Source: an archaeon
Lineage (GTDB): Archaea > Asgardarchaeota > Thorarchaeia > Thorarchaeales > Thorarchaeaceae
Direction: 5' to 3'
Assembly (NCBI GenBank): GCA_024275415.1
Contig: JAJRZD010000079.1
Coordinates: forward strand, 1-5,937
Length of the DNA stretch: 5,937 bases
The translations under genes and the position numbers were made by a program. Numbering within the stretch: position 1 is the first letter of the stretch; every line of letters starts with the position of its first letter. This document shows positions 1-5,736 of this stretch, piece by piece. The notes beneath the pieces are model-generated. The model saw only the letters and a program-made list of their open reading frames with translations. It was not told the DNA's origin and searched no databases.

Positions 1-216
1 AACACACCAATTACTAGCCATTCATTGAAATCTGTATAACCTTGGACACCAGAGTGTTGTGCTCCTATGGAACGACACGAGGTGACTCTACGGTATTATG
101 GTCTGTATCTTCGATGCATCTCCACACCCGATTTCATAAAGCCGATTACTCGGAATCCATGAGTGAAATAGTGAATAATGAACTCTGAGTATGTATCTTG
201 TGAGGGTGTGGTAAAA

Positions 217-1287
217 ATGAAACTTATGAAAGCTGCTCCAAGTGTTCGGGGATATGTGCAGTCACTTATGCACTTCTCAGAGGCAAACGTTCTGGTTGAT
301 GTGTTTCTCAGGTCGTATCCATTAGGTTCTGAGATGCCAAAGGAGCTGCGTGAGAACACCCGATGCGTACGGATAATCCAAGTGTCAGAGAATTGCCTTG
401 CACTGGGCCCCAAGAAGCCCTTTGTCACTATGATACTCCCTCTTGAGGAGGTTTCTGCGGTGGTATTATCCTCGGAACTGTCTCGTCCCGATGAAGATGA
501 GATAGACCGGCTGATTGAGGCGGAATGCCCAACGTGGGAACGCGATTTCGCATCTACTATTGAATCGAGAGGAGTCAGACAGATGAGGACAAACCGAGGG
601 CGGGACATTACAGAACTGGACGAAGCATCCTTTTGGAACAAGGCTATGAGTGCCAAATATGCGGTCGTGGATATCTATGCACCGTGGTGTCAGCCCTGCA
701 AGGAGGTCGCTGCAATACTGGACGAGATGGCTGACAAGTTTGGCGACCGCGTGTTCTTCGCTAAACTAGACGGGGATGAACATGAGAAGTTGATCGATGA
801 TTTGAACGTCACTGCATATCCTACTGTACTCCTCATTGAGAACGGGGAGGTAAAGCAGAAGATCGAAGGTGCTCGGAGTCTAAAGAAGTACATACGCGAG
901 ATTGAGATACTTCTTGGATTTCGCAAGAGAGGGAAAATCCGTAACAAGATTGCAAATGGAAAGGTGAATGTCCTGAGTGCGGACACCCTTGTGGAGTATG
1001 TCGAGGACTCGACCGCATCTCTTATCCTGTTCTACAGGAAAGACGACCACGAGTGTAAGTTACAGATCCGAGCCATGCGAGAGCTGGCGCCCAAGTACAA
1101 ACATCGTGTGCTGTTTGCCAAGGCGGATGTGAAAGCTGAGAAGGAATTAGCGGAACTCTTCGAAGTCAAGGGAACTCCTGAACTGTATCTGGTGATGGAT
1201 GGCGATGTGTTTGGCTATGCAGAGAGTCGCATGACTAAATCCGAACTCCGTGATGCGATTGAGCATCTACTTGAGGAGCTTAACTAG
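217..1287 (+). CDS. Multidomain thioredoxin-family protein: ~130-aa N-terminal domain of unknown function + active Trx domain (WCQPC) + degenerate Trx domain (DHEC)
   Basis: Trx1 ~607-915: VVDIYAPWCQPCK (WCQPC at 685-699), FAKLDGD, cis-Pro loop AYPT. Trx2 ~964-1284: LILFYRKDDHECK (DHEC at 1045-1056), FAKADV, GTPE. The ORF track starts at 178; ATG 217 is preferred because GAGGGTG (202-208) lies 8 nt upstream. Confidence 0.9.
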   Translation: MKLMKAAPSVRGYVQSLMHFSEANVLVDVFLRSYPLGSEMPKELRENTRCVRIIQVSENCLALGPKKPFVTMILPLEEVSAVVLSSELSRPDEDEIDRLIEAECPTWERDFASTIESRGVRQMRTNRGRDITELDEASFWNKAMSAKYAVVDIYAPWCQPCKEVAAILDEMADKFGDRVFFAKLDGDEHEKLIDDLNVTAYPTVLLIENGEVKQKIEGARSLKKYIREIEILLGFRKRGKIRNKIANGKVNVLSADTLVEYVEDSTASLILFYRKDDHECKLQIRAMRELAPKYKHRVLFAKADVKAEKELAELFEVKGTPELYLVMDGDVFGYAESRMTKSELRDAIEHLLEELN

Positions 1288-1568: not shown

Positions 1569-2056
1569 TCGTGGCTTCAGCATCTCCTAGAGCGCTATTG
1601 TTAGGGGAATATCTCTACAATCTGACACTCATATTTGCCTCTGCTGCTTTCGTACTTGTCACAGGTGTGCTTGTGTTCAATGTGTCACTCAACTGGGACA
1701 TCCTTGCGCTGGTTGTCTTGACGTTGCTCGTGTCTATGAGCGCAATCGGGCCCGGACTGATCATATCAGGCTTCACAAAGGACGCTGAAACTGCAGGGTC
1801 CATCCAGACTGTCCTCGCTATCCCGTTGCAATTCTTCACAGGCAGTTTCTTCCCGTTGTTCCTGCTTCCTGAAGTGGGTCAGGCATTCGCCCTAGTACTG
1901 CCTTATACACAGTACTCCCTTGCTGTCAGCAACATCATGGTCAACGGTCTCACGCTTGCAGATGTGTGGGCAAATGTCATCTACGTTACTGTCACAGGCA
2001 TAGCCCTGATGATACTTGGGATTCTCGCTTACTCTAGAACCCTCCGGAAACTGTAA
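1535..2056 (+). pseudogene. 3' remnant of an ABC-2 type exporter permease
   Basis: The frame upstream of GTG 1571 reads RERDTGTLRRLIVAS..ALLLGEYL, the conserved ABC-2 permease cytoplasmic loop. Hydrophobic helices follow, with FFTGSFFP and LPYTQY motifs. An in-frame TGA at 1517-1519 and ATPase sequence upstream show the N-terminal part is missing. Confidence 0.85.
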
Positions 2057-2233
2057 GCATCGTAAGGGAAGTACATTGCCGTATCTGACGGAATCGAGGC
2101 TGCTGACCATGCGGATACTCGGTTCGTGGGGTCGGAGCCTCGCAATAGTGTCGGGCACCTGCTTGAGAAACTTGCACTCTTATCAAAGAACTTTTCAGGC
2201 GGGGAGGCAATCATAGAAGGGAGGCTTCGTCCC

Positions 2234-2488
2234 TTGAGCGAAAGGAAAAGGATCGGCAAGATAACGCGCTATTTCCACAAGATCGGCGTTGCAGCGATAA
2301 TGTTAGAGGATTCCCTGAAGGTCGGCACCAAGATTCACATCGAAGGTGCCACGACAAACTTCGAGCAGGAAGTCGCTTCGATGCAGGTGGATCGCGTAGA
2401 AGTCGAAGAAGGAAAATCTGGACAGGAGATCGCAATAAAGGTCAAGGACCGTGTCCGTGAGAATGACATTGTGTACCTTGCTGAGTGA
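2234..2488 (+). CDS. Small stand-alone beta-barrel protein (84 aa), EF-Tu domain II / U32 peptidase C-terminal domain-like ('translation elongation factor-like protein')
   Basis: RIGKITRYFHKIGVAAIML..LKVGTKIHIEGATTNFEQEVASMQVD..EVEEGKSGQEIAIKVKDRVRENDIVY matches the family pattern G.V.HYF.KIGVA...L..GD.I.I.G.TT.F.Q.V.SMQ. TTG 2234 is preferred over the track start 2126 because GGGAGG (2219-2224) lies 9 nt upstream and similarity begins there. Confidence 0.85.
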   Translation: MSERKRIGKITRYFHKIGVAAIMLEDSLKVGTKIHIEGATTNFEQEVASMQVDRVEVEEGKSGQEIAIKVKDRVRENDIVYLAE

Positions 2489-2706: not shown

Positions 2707-2840
2707 CATGGAAGTAAACAGAGGAAACGAATCTGTCCGAGCTTTGACAACAGATCATCAGAATGCGATGGCCTAGCTTTGGATGTCGTACTCATCGGGG
2801 CCATCCACGATGACCATACTCACGAACAACACTTCTGAGC

Positions 2841-2846
2841 AGGTGA
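2841..2846 (+). promoter_or_regulatory. Shine-Dalgarno site (AGGTGA) of the opine dehydrogenase gene
   Basis: AGGTGA 5 nt upstream of ATG 2852, complementary to the 16S rRNA 3' end (archaeal-type GGAGGTGA core). Confidence 0.7.
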
Positions 2847-2851
2847 TACTC

Positions 2852-4036
2852 ATGACTTTGGAAAACACGAACGAGATGACACCAGATATCCTAAAAGTCG
2901 CAGTTATTGGCGCTGGACATGCTGGTAGAGGACTCGCCAGCTACTTGTCGATATACGGGATTGATGTCACACTATTCAATCGCACCTTCGCAAATATCCG
3001 TGCGATTCGCGAGAATGGAGGCATTAGAGTGTGTGGCATGTATGACACCTTTGCAGAGATCACGCTCATCACGAATAACATTAGAGCTGCAATCAATGAC
3101 TGTCAACTGATAGTAGTCACAGTGCCTGCACACACCCATTCATACTACGCCAGGATAATGGCACCTCACTTGCAGTCAGGTCAAGTGGTGTTGCTGATGC
3201 CCGGACGCACAGGAGGCGCTCTAGAGTTCATGAACACCATCAGTTACTCCTCGATAACACGAGATGTGTTGGTCGCCGAGGCTGAAACCTACAGCTTTGT
3301 ATCCCGCATGGTAGATGAAGAAACCGTTCTGCTGTCGAAGATAAAGACCAGCGTTGAGGTCAGCGCATTTCCCGCGATAAGAAACAAGGAACTCTTGCAG
3401 GCACTAAAGCCACTTCCATTGAACATCAAGCTGGCAGAAACCGTTCTAGAAACGAGTTTCAATAATATTGGGGCGATGTTACATCCCACTCCCACTATTC
3501 TGAGTGCGGGACTTCTCGAATCGAGGGGTGGTGGATACAATCACTATCATGATGCGATCTCTCCGACAGTTGGCAGATTATTGGAAAAGATGGACGCTGA
3601 GAGAGTGCGTGTGGCCCGTGAATTTGATACCAATCCGATAACCCTTATCGAATGGCTTACCTCTTCATACGGAGCAAGAGGCACCACACTCTGCGAGTGT
3701 ATCAAGAGCATCGATGCGTACGACAACGTTGGGAGCCCTTCATCCCTGGATCATCGCTATGTGCTTGAGGATGTGCCAACCGGATTGGTTCCTATCTCGT
3801 ATTTCGGCAAGCTTGCGGGCATTGACACTCCAACAATCGATACGGTCATCGATATGGCGTGCCACCTGTATGATATCGATTTCTGGGTCGAAGGCAGGAA
3901 TATTGAGAGTCTTGGCCTTGGCGGACTGAGCCCGCTGGATGTGTTGCATTATGTCAAGACTGGCGAGTTGCCTGAAGACATGACCGTGGAACAACCTCTT
4001 CCAGATATCTTTGGGCTGGAGGTTGATGAGATATGA
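2852..4036 (+). CDS. NAD/NADP-dependent opine dehydrogenase (octopine/nopaline dehydrogenase family), 394 aa; substrate unknown
   Basis: Rossmann motif KVAVIGAGHAG (GxGxxG at 2909-2926); MPGRTGGALEF; N-x-G-x-x-L-H-P (His at 3482-3484); RYVLEDVPTGLVP (3755-3793, family signature with the catalytic Asp). The track start 2783 has no evident SD; 2852 does. Confidence 0.92.
   Translation: MTLENTNEMTPDILKVAVIGAGHAGRGLASYLSIYGIDVTLFNRTFANIRAIRENGGIRVCGMYDTFAEITLITNNIRAAINDCQLIVVTVPAHTHSYYARIMAPHLQSGQVVLLMPGRTGGALEFMNTISYSSITRDVLVAEAETYSFVSRMVDEETVLLSKIKTSVEVSAFPAIRNKELLQALKPLPLNIKLAETVLETSFNNIGAMLHPTPTILSAGLLESRGGGYNHYHDAISPTVGRLLEKMDAERVRVAREFDTNPITLIEWLTSSYGARGTTLCECIKSIDAYDNVGSPSSLDHRYVLEDVPTGLVPISYFGKLAGIDTPTIDTVIDMACHLYDIDFWVEGRNIESLGLGGLSPLDVLHYVKTGELPEDMTVEQPLPDIFGLEVDEI
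4018..4036 (+). promoter_or_regulatory. Internal SD (GGAGGT) and ATGA start/stop overlap coupling the two operon genes
   Basis: GGAGGT at 4018-4023, 9 nt before ATG 4033; ATG 4033-4035 overlaps TGA 4034-4036. Confidence 0.8.
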
Positions 4037-5736
4037 AGATTCTCGGTGCTGCAATAGGTGCATGTGTGCATGTCGCTGGAGTCTTCCGGTTCCTCAGTCT
4101 GGCTGAGGATGAAGGTCATGAGACCATCTTTCTAGGGCCGGCAGTCCCGATTGGGCGACTGATAGAGGAGGTCTTAAAGCATGACCCTGATGTTGTCGGG
4201 GTCAGCTATCGTCTGACAGAAGCAAGTGCTGAGAATCTACTTGCTGAACTGCATGAGGCAGTACGAGCAAACGGTCTTGAAGGAAAGCGATGGGTCTTGG
4301 GTTGTACTGCTCCCATCAGACCTATTGCGGAACGCTTGGGATTGTTCCAAGAGATATTCACTGGGTTCTCGACTGATGATGACACATTGTCTTTCCTGAG
4401 AGGGAGGACTCGTGAGCACAGTATTGACCAGCCACCGCAGGATCTGCTGACGCGAATTGCCATGAAGTGCCCCGTCCCGCTCATTCGCCATCACTTTGGA
4501 CTTCCTTCATTCGAAGAGACCGTCGCAGGGGTGGCAAAGATTGCTGACGCATCGGTTCTCGATGTCATCTCCCTTGGGCCTGATCAGAATGCGCAGGAGG
4601 CATTCTTTCGGCCAGACGAGATGGACTTTGCGCGGACAGGCGACGGTGGAGTGCCCTTGCGAAGGAAAGAGGATCTTGAGGAGATATACAAGTCCTCACG
4701 ACGTGGCAATTTCCCGTTGCTCAGGTGTTACAGTGGGACCCGTGACCTGCTCTCATGGGCTAGGATGCTGAAGGACACCATAGACAATGCGTGGTGTGCT
4801 ACACCCTTGTTATGGTACAGCGAGCTTGATGGTAGGAGTAAGAGACCTCTCGAACAGGCGATAGTCGAGAATGTGGAGAACCACCGATGGCATGGGCAGC
4901 ATGATATCCCTGTCGAGATTAATGAGTCGCATCACTGGAGCCTGAGAAGCGCTCATGACACAATCGCTGTGACCATGGCGTATCTCTCAGCATACAACGC
5001 CAAGATGAGCGGAGTGCGACATTATGTTGCCCAGTATATGCTGAACACCCCACTGGGTACTTCACCCAAGATGGACTTGGCAAAGATGCTTGCGAAGATC
5101 GAGCTCATTGAGTCCCTCCATGACCACAGCTTTGAAACATTTCGTCAGGTTCGCCCAGGCCTGTTCTCCTATCCTCCCGACCTCGACTTTGGGAAGGGGC
5201 AGTTGGCATCTTCCATCTACACGGGGATGATGTTGAAACCACACATTGTGCATGTTGTGGGATACTGTGAGGCTGATCACGCAGCGACTGCTGATGAAAT
5301 CATCGAGAGCTGCAAGATTGCTCGGCGGGTCATCCATGATTGTCTACAAGGGCTTCCTGACCCTCTTGCTGACAAAGAGATCGTCCAGCGGAAGAACCTG
5401 CTCATCAGCGAGGCACAAGTACTCATCAAAGGACTGTGCTTGTTGAATGAATCTAGCACCACGAATCCCCTTACAGACCCAAGGACATATGTTCTGGCTG
5501 TGGAGAAAGGTGTCTTGGATGCCCCACATCTAAGGAACAGTCCCATAGCGAAGGGCGAACTTGAAACAAGGATGATCAATGGAGCATGTGTCGCTATAGA
5601 CCCGGACGATGGGGAGCCGATTGACGAAAAGACTCGATTGGAACGATTGGGACTTGATTTGGAACAAAACCTCAAGACCGATATGCCTTTCATTCGTATT
5701 CCAAGCATCAGACATCAAGTTGATGAGTATCGTTGA
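4033..5736 (+). CDS. Single-chain cobalamin-dependent protein (567 aa): N-terminal B12-binding domain fused to a glutamate mutase E-like TIM barrel; probable AdoCbl radical enzyme of unknown substrate
   Basis: Residues ~1-125 carry base-off/His-on hallmarks: CVHVAG (DxHxxG variant, 4063-4080), FLG, VVGVSYRL, VLGC. In the remainder, HHFGLPS..DVISLGPDQ, DGGVP, YSGTRD, INE, AKMSGVRHYVAQY and GYCEADHAAT parallel the barrel strands of GlmE (by-eye comparison from memory). The B12 domain is firmer than the barrel assignment. Confidence 0.8.
   Translation: MKILGAAIGACVHVAGVFRFLSLAEDEGHETIFLGPAVPIGRLIEEVLKHDPDVVGVSYRLTEASAENLLAELHEAVRANGLEGKRWVLGCTAPIRPIAERLGLFQEIFTGFSTDDDTLSFLRGRTREHSIDQPPQDLLTRIAMKCPVPLIRHHFGLPSFEETVAGVAKIADASVLDVISLGPDQNAQEAFFRPDEMDFARTGDGGVPLRRKEDLEEIYKSSRRGNFPLLRCYSGTRDLLSWARMLKDTIDNAWCATPLLWYSELDGRSKRPLEQAIVENVENHRWHGQHDIPVEINESHHWSLRSAHDTIAVTMAYLSAYNAKMSGVRHYVAQYMLNTPLGTSPKMDLAKMLAKIELIESLHDHSFETFRQVRPGLFSYPPDLDFGKGQLASSIYTGMMLKPHIVHVVGYCEADHAATADEIIESCKIARRVIHDCLQGLPDPLADKEIVQRKNLLISEAQVLIKGLCLLNESSTTNPLTDPRTYVLAVEKGVLDAPHLRNSPIAKGELETRMINGACVAIDPDDGEPIDEKTRLERLGLDLEQNLKTDMPFIRIPSIRHQVDEYR

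Follow-up and report, generated by a model that had tools for sequence, protein, structure and literature searches.

A fused B12-binding and glutamate mutase E-like barrel protein with a replaced arginine claw, encoded beside an opine-type dehydrogenase in a Thorarchaeaceae genome

The gene pair and its neighborhood

The window analyzed here, a whole stretch of 5,937 nucleotides, carried a gene of the opine-dehydrogenase family (P0002; 2783..4036, + strand) followed by a gene for an enzyme in which a B12-binding domain is fused to a glutamate mutase E (GlmE)-like barrel (P0001; 4033..5736, + strand). P0001 was 567 aa long and was characterized from its ORF, Pfam matches, an AF2 model, and a structure search. 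An earlier note on this DNA had singled out positions 4483-4938, which corresponded to residues 151-302 of the ORF at 4033-5736 on the + strand. The strings that it quoted, RHHFGLPSFEETVAGVAKIADASVLDVISLGPDQNAQ, PLLRCYSGTRD, and NAWCAT, were all found in the ORF translation, as was INESHHW. The His pairs that it listed at 153-154 and 300-301 were both present.

P0002 was listed with 417 aa and was assigned by PF02317 with an E-value of 8e-42. Translation may actually start at Met24 (nt 2852) or Met31 (nt 2873), since the N-termini of the homologues lie approximately 8 aa ahead of the GxGxxG motif. The glycines of this Rossmann motif (G43/G45/G48) were invariant in 23 partner sequences. P0002 was matched over its full length by N-(1-D-carboxyethyl)-L-norvaline dehydrogenase (CENDH) of Arthrobacter (PDB 1bg6), with a phmmer E-value of 3.6e-66. 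The catalytic His202, Arg292, and Asp297 of CENDH were kept as H234, R325, and D330 in P0002, and these residues were likewise invariant in the 23 partners. Unlike P0002, CENDH is a stand-alone enzyme of an aerobic organism and lacks a B12 partner.

According to the ORF coordinates, the stop codon of P0002 and the start codon of P0001 shared an ATGA overlap (4033..4036, + strand), from which translational coupling of the two genes is predicted. The same 4-nt overlap was found in an Anoxybacter locus (L001) and in a Thorarchaeota locus (L003). The dehydrogenase gene was located directly upstream on the same strand in 28 of 30 bacterial loci and also in Asgard loci, and it adjoined even those relatives of P0001 that were only 32-34 % identical. 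The complex prediction for P0001 and P0002 gave a score of 0.01, which spoke neither for nor against binding. Beyond the pair, no gene was common to all 30 bacterial loci on the downstream side, where the genes were heterogeneous (Lgt, P-type ATPase, SpoIIE, HD, and RNase R). In the window, the opine dehydrogenase gene stood alone upstream, without a GlmS/GlmL/methylaspartate ammonia-lyase operon as in the E. coli O157 cluster. The partner of P0001 was an opine dehydrogenase and not methylaspartase as in the case of GlmE. In some lineages, a Ddl-type ATP-grasp ligase traveled with the pair (53 % identity between an archaeon and a bacterium). No Ddl-like ligase was found in the genome of P0001, where the generic PF07478 matches were unspecific.

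Domain organization and fold

The N-terminal part of P0001 (residues 1 to ~125; 4033..4407, + strand) was a Rossmann-type B12-binding domain, as indicated by PF02310 (E 5e-8) and by the strands and helices of the AF2 model. It matched corrinoid proteins in the PDB (4jgi and 1y80) as well as the B12 domains of OAM and GlmS. The loop C11-V-H13-V-A-G16 (4063..4080, + strand) corresponded in the alignments to DxHxxG in 4jgi, OAM, and GlmS, and H13 coincided with the cofactor His of these proteins, the position of the base-off/His-on ligand. This meant that CxHxxG was a variant of the base-off/His-on motif. Among 159 relatives, C11 was kept in 145, H13 in 151, and G16 in 155, and the Asp of the usual motif was found at the Cys11 position in 6.

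The rest of the protein was a GlmE-like (beta/alpha)8 barrel with a C-terminal domain (residues 134-540; 4432..5652, + strand), as delimited by VIA-align and hhalign. A barrel of this kind had been proposed from an alignment by eye, and it was supported by structure comparison. The top PDB match in Foldseek was 1cb7_B (GlmE) with an E-value of 2.6e-15. VIA-align superposed residues 133-538 of the model on residues 43-440 of 1cb7_B with Z 33.1 and an rmsd of 2.8 Å over 370 residues. AdoCbl aminomutases and acyl-CoA mutases ranked next, and the top matches in Foldseek and VIA-align were all cobalamin-dependent barrels.

The sequence comparisons depended on the profiles used. When P0001 and the family profile were run with phmmer and hmmsearch against PDB sequences, B12-binding domains were returned and no GlmE. 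In an earlier hhalign run, in which the 12 GlmE sequences were closely related, the alignment was long but had a probability of 2 %. Significance was reached only with diverse GlmE harvested from genomes and a profile trimmed to the barrel; the family barrel profile then matched 15 true GlmE sequences with 92.7 % and an E-value of 4.3e-7 over 349 columns. P0001 itself gave no Pfam match to PF06368 at E<=1, so the gathering score was not reached. However, 9 of 21 family members matched this model weakly at E<=0.01 (best 1e-6), and the relative P0138 passed the cut-off with 27.5 vs 26.6 bits. These results suggested that P0001 is most likely a member of the GlmS+GlmE lineage in which one fused chain contains both subunits, S preceding E. 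It resembled GlmS/GlmE (EC 5.4.99.1; C. cochlearium, PDB 1cb7, 1ccw, 1i9c, and 6h9e) in the barrel, the C-terminal domain, and the B12 Rossmann domain with its His ligand. In contrast, P0001 consisted of one polypeptide whose N-terminal part was the S-like domain, and its loop contained CxHxxG instead of DxHxxG.

Residues at the claw positions

In GlmE, the claw arginines Arg66, Arg100, and Arg149 bind the two carboxylates of glutamate (PMC10947579). Residue equivalences were determined from the profile alignment and the strand ends of the AF2 model, with GlmE numbering transferred to C. cochlearium. His154, Gln188, and Tyr233 had been placed at the three claw positions, and hhalign bore this out. 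The segment R152-H153-H154 formed the end of barrel strand 1 (4486..4494, + strand), and H154 was aligned to R66, anchored by the invariant G156 at G68. Q188 (4594..4596, + strand) was aligned to R100, ungapped from D184 at D96 and D177 at D89. The segment R231-C232-Y233 formed the end of barrel strand 3 (4723..4731, + strand), and Y233 was aligned to R149, anchored by the match of G235-T236-x-D238 to G151-T152-P-D154. The equivalents of Asp89 and Asp96 and the Gly-Thr-x-Asp after strand 3 were features shared with GlmE. In the AF2 model, DSSP strands ended at H154 and Y233, as expected for residues at the barrel mouth. H154 was kept in 157, Q188 in 156, and Y233 in 158 of the 159 relatives. 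However, genuine GlmE (n=15) kept R66, R100, and R149 with no exception, down to 43 % identity. Whether arginines persist at these positions had been put forward as a check, and the profile alignment showed His, Gln, and Tyr instead. Because strictly conserved residues replace the claw arginines, the substrate is probably not glutamate.

Two further equivalences could not be confirmed as the earlier note had stated them. Glu171 had been described as replaced (NAWCAT), and its placement shifted with the alignment: two profile alignments gave C255 or D266, and the ungapped register gave T257. There was no clear Glu171 in P0001, unlike in GlmE. Glu298 had been equated with Glu214, and hhalign put Glu214 no more than one residue away from E298. 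The invariant D266-G267-R268 in the loop that follows strand 4 (4828..4836, + strand) was recognized by its conservation, and it may substitute for the region around Glu171, Tyr177, and Tyr181 in GlmE, although this part of the alignment is ambiguous. The segment of strand 5 with its loop, E295-I-N297-E298-S-H300-H301-W302 (4915..4938, + strand), which includes the second His pair, was also conserved, with E295 in 158, N297 in 156, E298 in 151, H300 in 155, and W302 in 159 of the 159 relatives. H301 was present in 119 of them, and Gln was found there in 38. The position of Lys326 in GlmE was Val409 in P0001. The predicted pocket was rich in His, Trp, Tyr, Asp, and Glu.

The claim that the site was reshaped away from glutamate was upheld in part. 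The three claw arginines were replaced; however, four near-invariant arginines remained in the barrel, namely R152 (158/159 relatives), R231 (158/159), R268 (157/159), and R374, and D266 was kept in 159/159. R152 and R231, which the earlier note had not mentioned, were aligned to Q64 and Q147 of GlmE, two residues upstream of the lost claw arginines on strands 1 and 3. The absence of the claw does not mean that carboxylates cannot bind, because these four arginines persist. An anionic, even glutamate-like, substrate would be compatible with them, with the side-chain orientation judged from the strand register alone. P0001 might then still be a mutase of glutamate, methylaspartate, or a close dicarboxylate, with the carboxylates gripped by the relocated R152, R231, R268, and R374, an interpretation that we considered unlikely. 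It would agree with GlmE as the closest overall fold, with the presence of two of the arginines on strands from which claw arginines were lost, and with the relative P0139, whose gene neighbors encode subunits of an aconitase-type hydratase, as is the case in dicarboxylate pathways. However, Gln64 and Gln147 are core positions kept even by divergent GlmE paralogues, so a structural role of R152 and R231 is plausible. The conserved gene context contained an opine dehydrogenase instead of methylaspartate ammonia-lyase or mesaconase. In addition, the family and canonical GlmE occurred together in eight sampled genomes (G001, G087, G121, G128, G154, G159, G179, and G199). Together with the replaced claw, this supported the view that the name 'glutamate mutase' would be a misannotation.

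Predicted reaction and candidate substrates

E413 (5269..5271, + strand) was aligned to Glu330 of GlmE in both hhalign runs, and Glu was kept there in 155 of 159 close and 20 of 20 distant relatives. In GlmE, the adenosyl ribose is held by Glu330, a role that E413 would share by equivalence. It occupied the position of the ribose glutamate of base-off/His-on isomerases (Glu330 in GlmE, Glu338 in OAM). A MutL/GlmL-type protein (PF13941) was encoded directly downstream of the family gene in two loci (L061 and L064), and it was fused to the distant relatives P0155 and P0162, which retained the same signature residues. This linkage of some relatives to a MutL-type reactivase was another likeness to GlmS/GlmE. 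The genome of P0001 encoded a PduO-type adenosyltransferase, and no MutL was found in this MAG, which is 92.9 % complete. Since the glutamate for the adenosyl ribose was kept and since MutL linkage and a PduO adenosyltransferase were found, an AdoCbl radical isomerase is likely. The fold, the residue replacements and their conservation, the gene pairing, and the MutL linkage were established here, and from these we infer the use of AdoCbl, a radical reaction, and the kind of substrate. These results suggested that P0001 is probably an AdoCbl-dependent radical isomerase of the glutamate-mutase lineage that acts on a substrate other than glutamate and works with P0002.

In the proposed mechanism, His13 of the CxHxxG loop would ligate cobalt from below, and the barrel would close on the cofactor from above. 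Once the Co-C bond is homolyzed, Glu413 would hold 5'-deoxyadenosine by its ribose. The adenosyl radical would take a hydrogen from the substrate at the barrel mouth, and a 1,2-rearrangement would be followed by return of the hydrogen. The mutase and P0002, to which it is translationally coupled, would be obligate partners. The dehydrogenase would make or consume the substrate or product of the mutase, and this compound is probably either an amino acid or a secondary amine of the N-(1-carboxyalkyl)amino acid type.

That P0001 is a PLP-dependent aminomutase like the lysine 5,6- or ornithine 4,5-enzymes, moving the amino group of a basic amino acid, was regarded as quite improbable. The barrels of LAM and OAM were nearly as close as that of GlmE (VIA Z 30.7 and 27.8) and are AdoCbl barrels of the same superfamily. 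OAM also joins the barrel and B12 domain in one chain, and the partner enzyme P0002 acts on C-N bonds. However, the domain order of P0001 was reversed relative to OAM. A 4-residue insertion of OAM, the candidate loop for the PLP-Lys, was absent in the family profile when compared with 3kow, and no conserved Lys was found there. From the numbering offset from His618, we take this insertion to be the loop with the PLP-anchoring Lys629. At the sequence level, the family matched PF06368 and no Pfam aminomutase family.

Very little probability was given to a corrinoid methyltransferase or 'methionine synthase'. These names stood in the source annotation of relatives and in many database records, the B12 domain scored best against methyltransferase corrinoid proteins, and pterin-binding DHPS barrels were among the weaker structural matches (Z ~16). 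However, the barrel was far nearer to AdoCbl isomerases (Z 33 vs 16), and the adenosyl-binding Glu and the MutL linkage also argued against methyl transfer. At E<=1, Pfam gave PF02310 only and none of PF02574, PF00809, PF02607, or PF02965, and NCBIfam yielded no methionine synthase model. This agreed with the view that 'methionine synthase' would be a misannotation, as there was no Hcy, pterin, cap, or activation domain. A non-catalytic B12-binding protein (sensor or chaperone) or a decayed enzyme, which would fit the loss of both the DxHxxG Asp and the substrate claw, is hardly credible, because approximately 45 barrel positions were near-invariant across bacteria and archaea and the gene was strictly coupled in an operon to an intact dehydrogenase, both of which point to a catalytic site under purifying selection.

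The neighboring dehydrogenase gene suggested an opine as a candidate substrate of the mutase. We tentatively propose, as a possible but rather doubtful reading, that the dehydrogenase-mutase pair carries out a B12 radical rearrangement of a new kind. The mutase would isomerize either an N-(1-carboxyalkyl)amino acid of the opine type or an amino acid, basic or neutral, that is bound by acidic residues together with His, Gln, and Tyr. A variant of this idea is that the dehydrogenase makes a 2-oxo-acid imine, which could take the role of PLP in aminomutases. Where the Ddl-type ligase is present, mutase, ligase, and dehydrogenase would form a route to an undescribed metabolite derived from amino acids. 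This module would be formally analogous to PylB/PylC/PylD of pyrrolysine synthesis.

To our knowledge, about a dozen reactions of AdoCbl-dependent isomerases are known, and new ones are rare. The earlier note had implied a new substrate. The replaced claw spoke for this, but the family and its dehydrogenase partner had already been published. The P0001 family is the same as the 'novel B12-dependent protein family' reported in 11 bacterial genomes by Zhang, Rodionov, Gelfand, and Gladyshev in 2009 (BMC Genomics 10:78; PMC2667541). Its members had a distant N-terminal COG5012-type B12 domain, a pfam02317 octopine/nopaline dehydrogenase was always adjacent, a D-Ala-D-Ala ligase was sometimes nearby, and no function was assigned (PMC2667541). 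The relationship to GlmE, the missing claw, the MutL link, and the archaeal members go beyond that report (PMC2667541). In a literature search for a characterized member, nothing was found beyond the 2009 prediction; a transcriptome paper on Thermoanaerobacter went no further than an up-regulated octopine dehydrogenase gene. The family, which is common and strictly paired with an opine-type dehydrogenase, was thus first flagged seventeen years ago. The present analysis added the fused glutamate-mutase relative, an intact predicted adenosyl site, and a claw exchanged for a different but equally conserved set of residues, and this set is a concrete, testable handle on the substrate. The family was present in 56 of 151 sampled genomes of the archaeal phylum of P0001 and in ~36 of 201 sampled genomes of one bacterial phylum.

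Fold of P0001 and its genomic setting

P0001 is the product of the 567-aa ORF at 4033-5736 (+), and the span 4483-4938, on which the earlier note had focused, covers its residues 151-302. All strings quoted in that note were found in the protein, and so were its two His pairs (153-154 and 300-301). Pfam recognized a sole domain, the N-terminal B12-binding domain (PF02310, residues 2-63), and plain sequence searches of the PDB with P0001 and its family reached B12 domains only. An AlphaFold2 model was built on 21 diverse relatives and was confident (mean pLDDT 89.4, pTM 0.81). The best solved match of this model in Foldseek was 1cb7_B, the epsilon subunit of glutamate mutase (GlmE), with an E value of 2.6e-15. 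In VIA-align, residues 133-538 of the model and 43-440 of 1cb7_B gave Z = 33.1 with an rmsd of 2.8 Å over 370 residues. Lysine 5,6-aminomutase (Z 30.7), ornithine 4,5-aminomutase (OAM; 27.8) and the methylmalonyl-CoA mutases (approximately 22) followed. The top matches were all cobalamin-dependent barrels, which agreed with the GlmE-like cobalamin barrel proposed earlier. Pfam Met_asp_mut_E was matched by 9 of the 21 relatives at E<=0.01, with one fusion relative above the gathering score. When the family barrel profile was aligned with 15 genuine GlmE sequences, hhalign gave 92.7 % probability (E 4.3e-7, 349 columns).

The window is an entire 5.9-kb contig (C60) from a 3.5-Mb genome that is 92.9 % complete, and the closest protein matches of the window were from Thorarchaeota and other Asgard archaea. 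At 178-1287 (+), a 369-aa protein carries two thioredoxin-type domains (residues ~146-240 and ~261-331; PF00085, E 2e-33) behind a 140-residue N-terminal region without a family match. At 1571-2056 (+), the ORF aligned with ABC-2 permease profiles in their C-terminal half alone (PF12698 positions 199-347 of 347). The space back to the gene before it could not accommodate the rest; the ORF is probably what remains of a truncated gene, or else its start was mis-called. A 120-aa ORF at 2126-2488 (+), just 5' of the dehydrogenase gene, had no family match and gave faint matches to EF-Tu domain 2-like beta-barrels (E 0.017).

Residues at the claw positions

In GlmE, R66, R100 and R149 are known as the arginine claw, and roles have also been given for E171 and Y177 (PMC10947579). 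Residue numbers were transferred from C. cochlearium 6h9e_B/1cb7_B by alignment with the GlmE annotated in E. coli O157 Sakai, and diverse GlmE genes were gathered from 201 genomes in the phylum to which Anoxybacter belongs. Arg66, Arg100 and Arg149 were invariant in 15/15 genuine GlmE (43-100 % identical). In the hhalign alignment, H154 of P0001 fell on Arg66 beside the invariant Gly156/Gly68. Q188 fell on Arg100 without a gap from Asp177/Asp89 and Asp184/Asp96, and Y233 fell on Arg149 beside the Gly-Thr-x-Asp common to both families. Barrel strands 1 and 3 of the model end at H154 and Y233. No single-gap alternative alignment placed an arginine at any of the three positions. The 159 close relatives had His in 157, Gln in 156 and Tyr in 158 cases, and the 20 distant relatives (32-39 % identity) had them in 19, 20 and 20. 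The three substitutions named in the earlier note were thus borne out. Because they are kept in close and distant relatives alike, this conservation indicates that the replacement of the claw is real, ancient and under selection.

The same note had described the site as apparently lacking the claw. This holds for the claw arginines themselves, but the barrel is not poor in arginine, and two arginines have moved one layer deeper. R152 and R231 were each conserved in 158/159 relatives. They precede H154 and Y233 by two positions in strands 1 and 3, so by strand register they should face the same side, a layer further down. They correspond to Gln64 and Gln147 of GlmE, which are present even in divergent GlmE paralogues. 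Also near-invariant were R374 and R268, the latter part of an invariant Asp-Gly-Arg that follows strand 4. The conserved barrel arginines may line the bottom of the pocket or belong to a buried salt-bridge layer. Alignments differed on the counterpart of GlmE Glu171, placing it at C255, T257 or D266. Glu214 mapped within one residue of E298, its proposed match, and E298 was not conserved in the distant subgroup.

Two GlmE paralogues, L046 (G164:C1:398585-400594) and L047 (G127:C2:75729-77729), were 38-39 % identical to E. coli GlmE. They kept Gln64, Gln147, Arg149, Lys326 and Glu330 and had Leu66, Gln100 and Leu171 instead of the GlmE residues. This is a further GlmE-like group with an altered claw, presumably with a different substrate.

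Cofactor, substrate and partner gene

In both profile alignments, E413 corresponded to Glu330, the glutamate that holds the adenosyl ribose in GlmE structures, and it was conserved in 155/159 close relatives and in 20/20 distant ones. At two bacterial loci, the gene directly 3' of the mutase encodes a full-length MutL/GlmL-type protein (PF13941, E 3e-144). The same type of domain is fused at the C-terminus of distant relatives sharing the signature residues of the family. The genome of the window encodes a PduO-type cob(I)alamin adenosyltransferase (E 4.5e-56); in this genome, 92.9 % complete, neither MutL nor canonical GlmE was found. In the cofactor loop, His13 and Gly16 were kept, and the usual Asp was Cys in 145/159 relatives. 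The loop taken as bearing the PLP-anchoring lysine of OAM was absent from the family in their alignment. The adenosyl glutamate, the MutL link, the adenosyltransferase, His13 and the absent lysine loop pointed to P0001 as a predicted AdoCbl radical isomerase and away from a methyltransferase or a PLP aminomutase. In one of the MutL fusions (L008:3908-7588, 1226 aa), a distant family member with 37 % identity in the barrel is joined to a complete MutL reactivase-like domain; genes for a peptidase C45 (AAT) and for oligopeptide ABC ATPases lie next to it.

Anoxybacter fermentans carries a family member together with a canonical GlmE (61 % identical to E. coli GlmE), and seven others of the 201 genomes sampled also had both. 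P0002 (Octopine_DH family, PF02317, E 8e-42) is encoded at 2783-4036 (+), and its gene overlaps that of P0001 by ATGA. An opine dehydrogenase gene was found immediately 5' of the mutase on the same strand at 28/30 bacterial loci, and also in Thorarchaeota. It also adjoins a 625-aa mutase subfamily that is 32-34 % identical. P0002 matched the opine dehydrogenase CENDH (1bg6) with E 3.6e-66, and the equivalents of His202, Arg292 and Asp297 were invariant in 23 partners. The partner of the mutase is thus a genuine opine dehydrogenase. The lost claw, the coexistence with GlmE and the different conserved partner together argued that the substrate is not glutamate. The interpretation offered in the earlier note was supported in part. 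By the criteria tested here, neither "glutamate mutase" nor "methionine synthase" fits, and both would be misannotations, as had been anticipated. An opine as the substrate is a guess.

Distribution and accessory genes

The family was present in 56/151 sampled Asgard genomes and in 29/72 of the high-quality ones. It was already flagged, along with its dehydrogenase partner, in a 2009 paper, which noted a D-Ala-D-Ala ligase nearby (PMC2667541), and our literature search found no characterized member. New here are the quantitative relationship to GlmE, the claw replacement and its conservation at residue level, the retained adenosyl glutamate, the MutL link, the coexistence with true GlmE and the Asgard abundance. 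The significance is real but moderate, since the family had been flagged and the present analysis does not fix the reaction.

Subsets of the loci carry accessory genes. One is a Ddl-type ATP-grasp ligase, a candidate third pathway enzyme, which lies directly downstream of the dehydrogenase-mutase pair at L099:9013-10044 and L065:3229-4254. The archaeal and bacterial copies share 53 % identity (E 3e-121), although the adjoining mutases are only distantly related to each other. At L006:35-4463, the dehydrogenase gene is followed by P0138 (863 aa), a mutase joined to a GshB/RimK-type ATP-grasp domain, and then by a C26 amidase gene (Peptidase_C26/GATase). The close packing of these genes suggests that gamma-glutamyl-type amide chemistry surrounds the mutase product. 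A Mur-type ligase was also among the accessory genes. Several of these genes encode amide-bond enzymes, so the product may be an amino acid that is later ligated to something else. At L007:163-4105, P0139 (732 aa) combines the mutase with Peptidase_M15_3 and is followed by overlapping aconitase large and small subunit genes (LeuCD-like).
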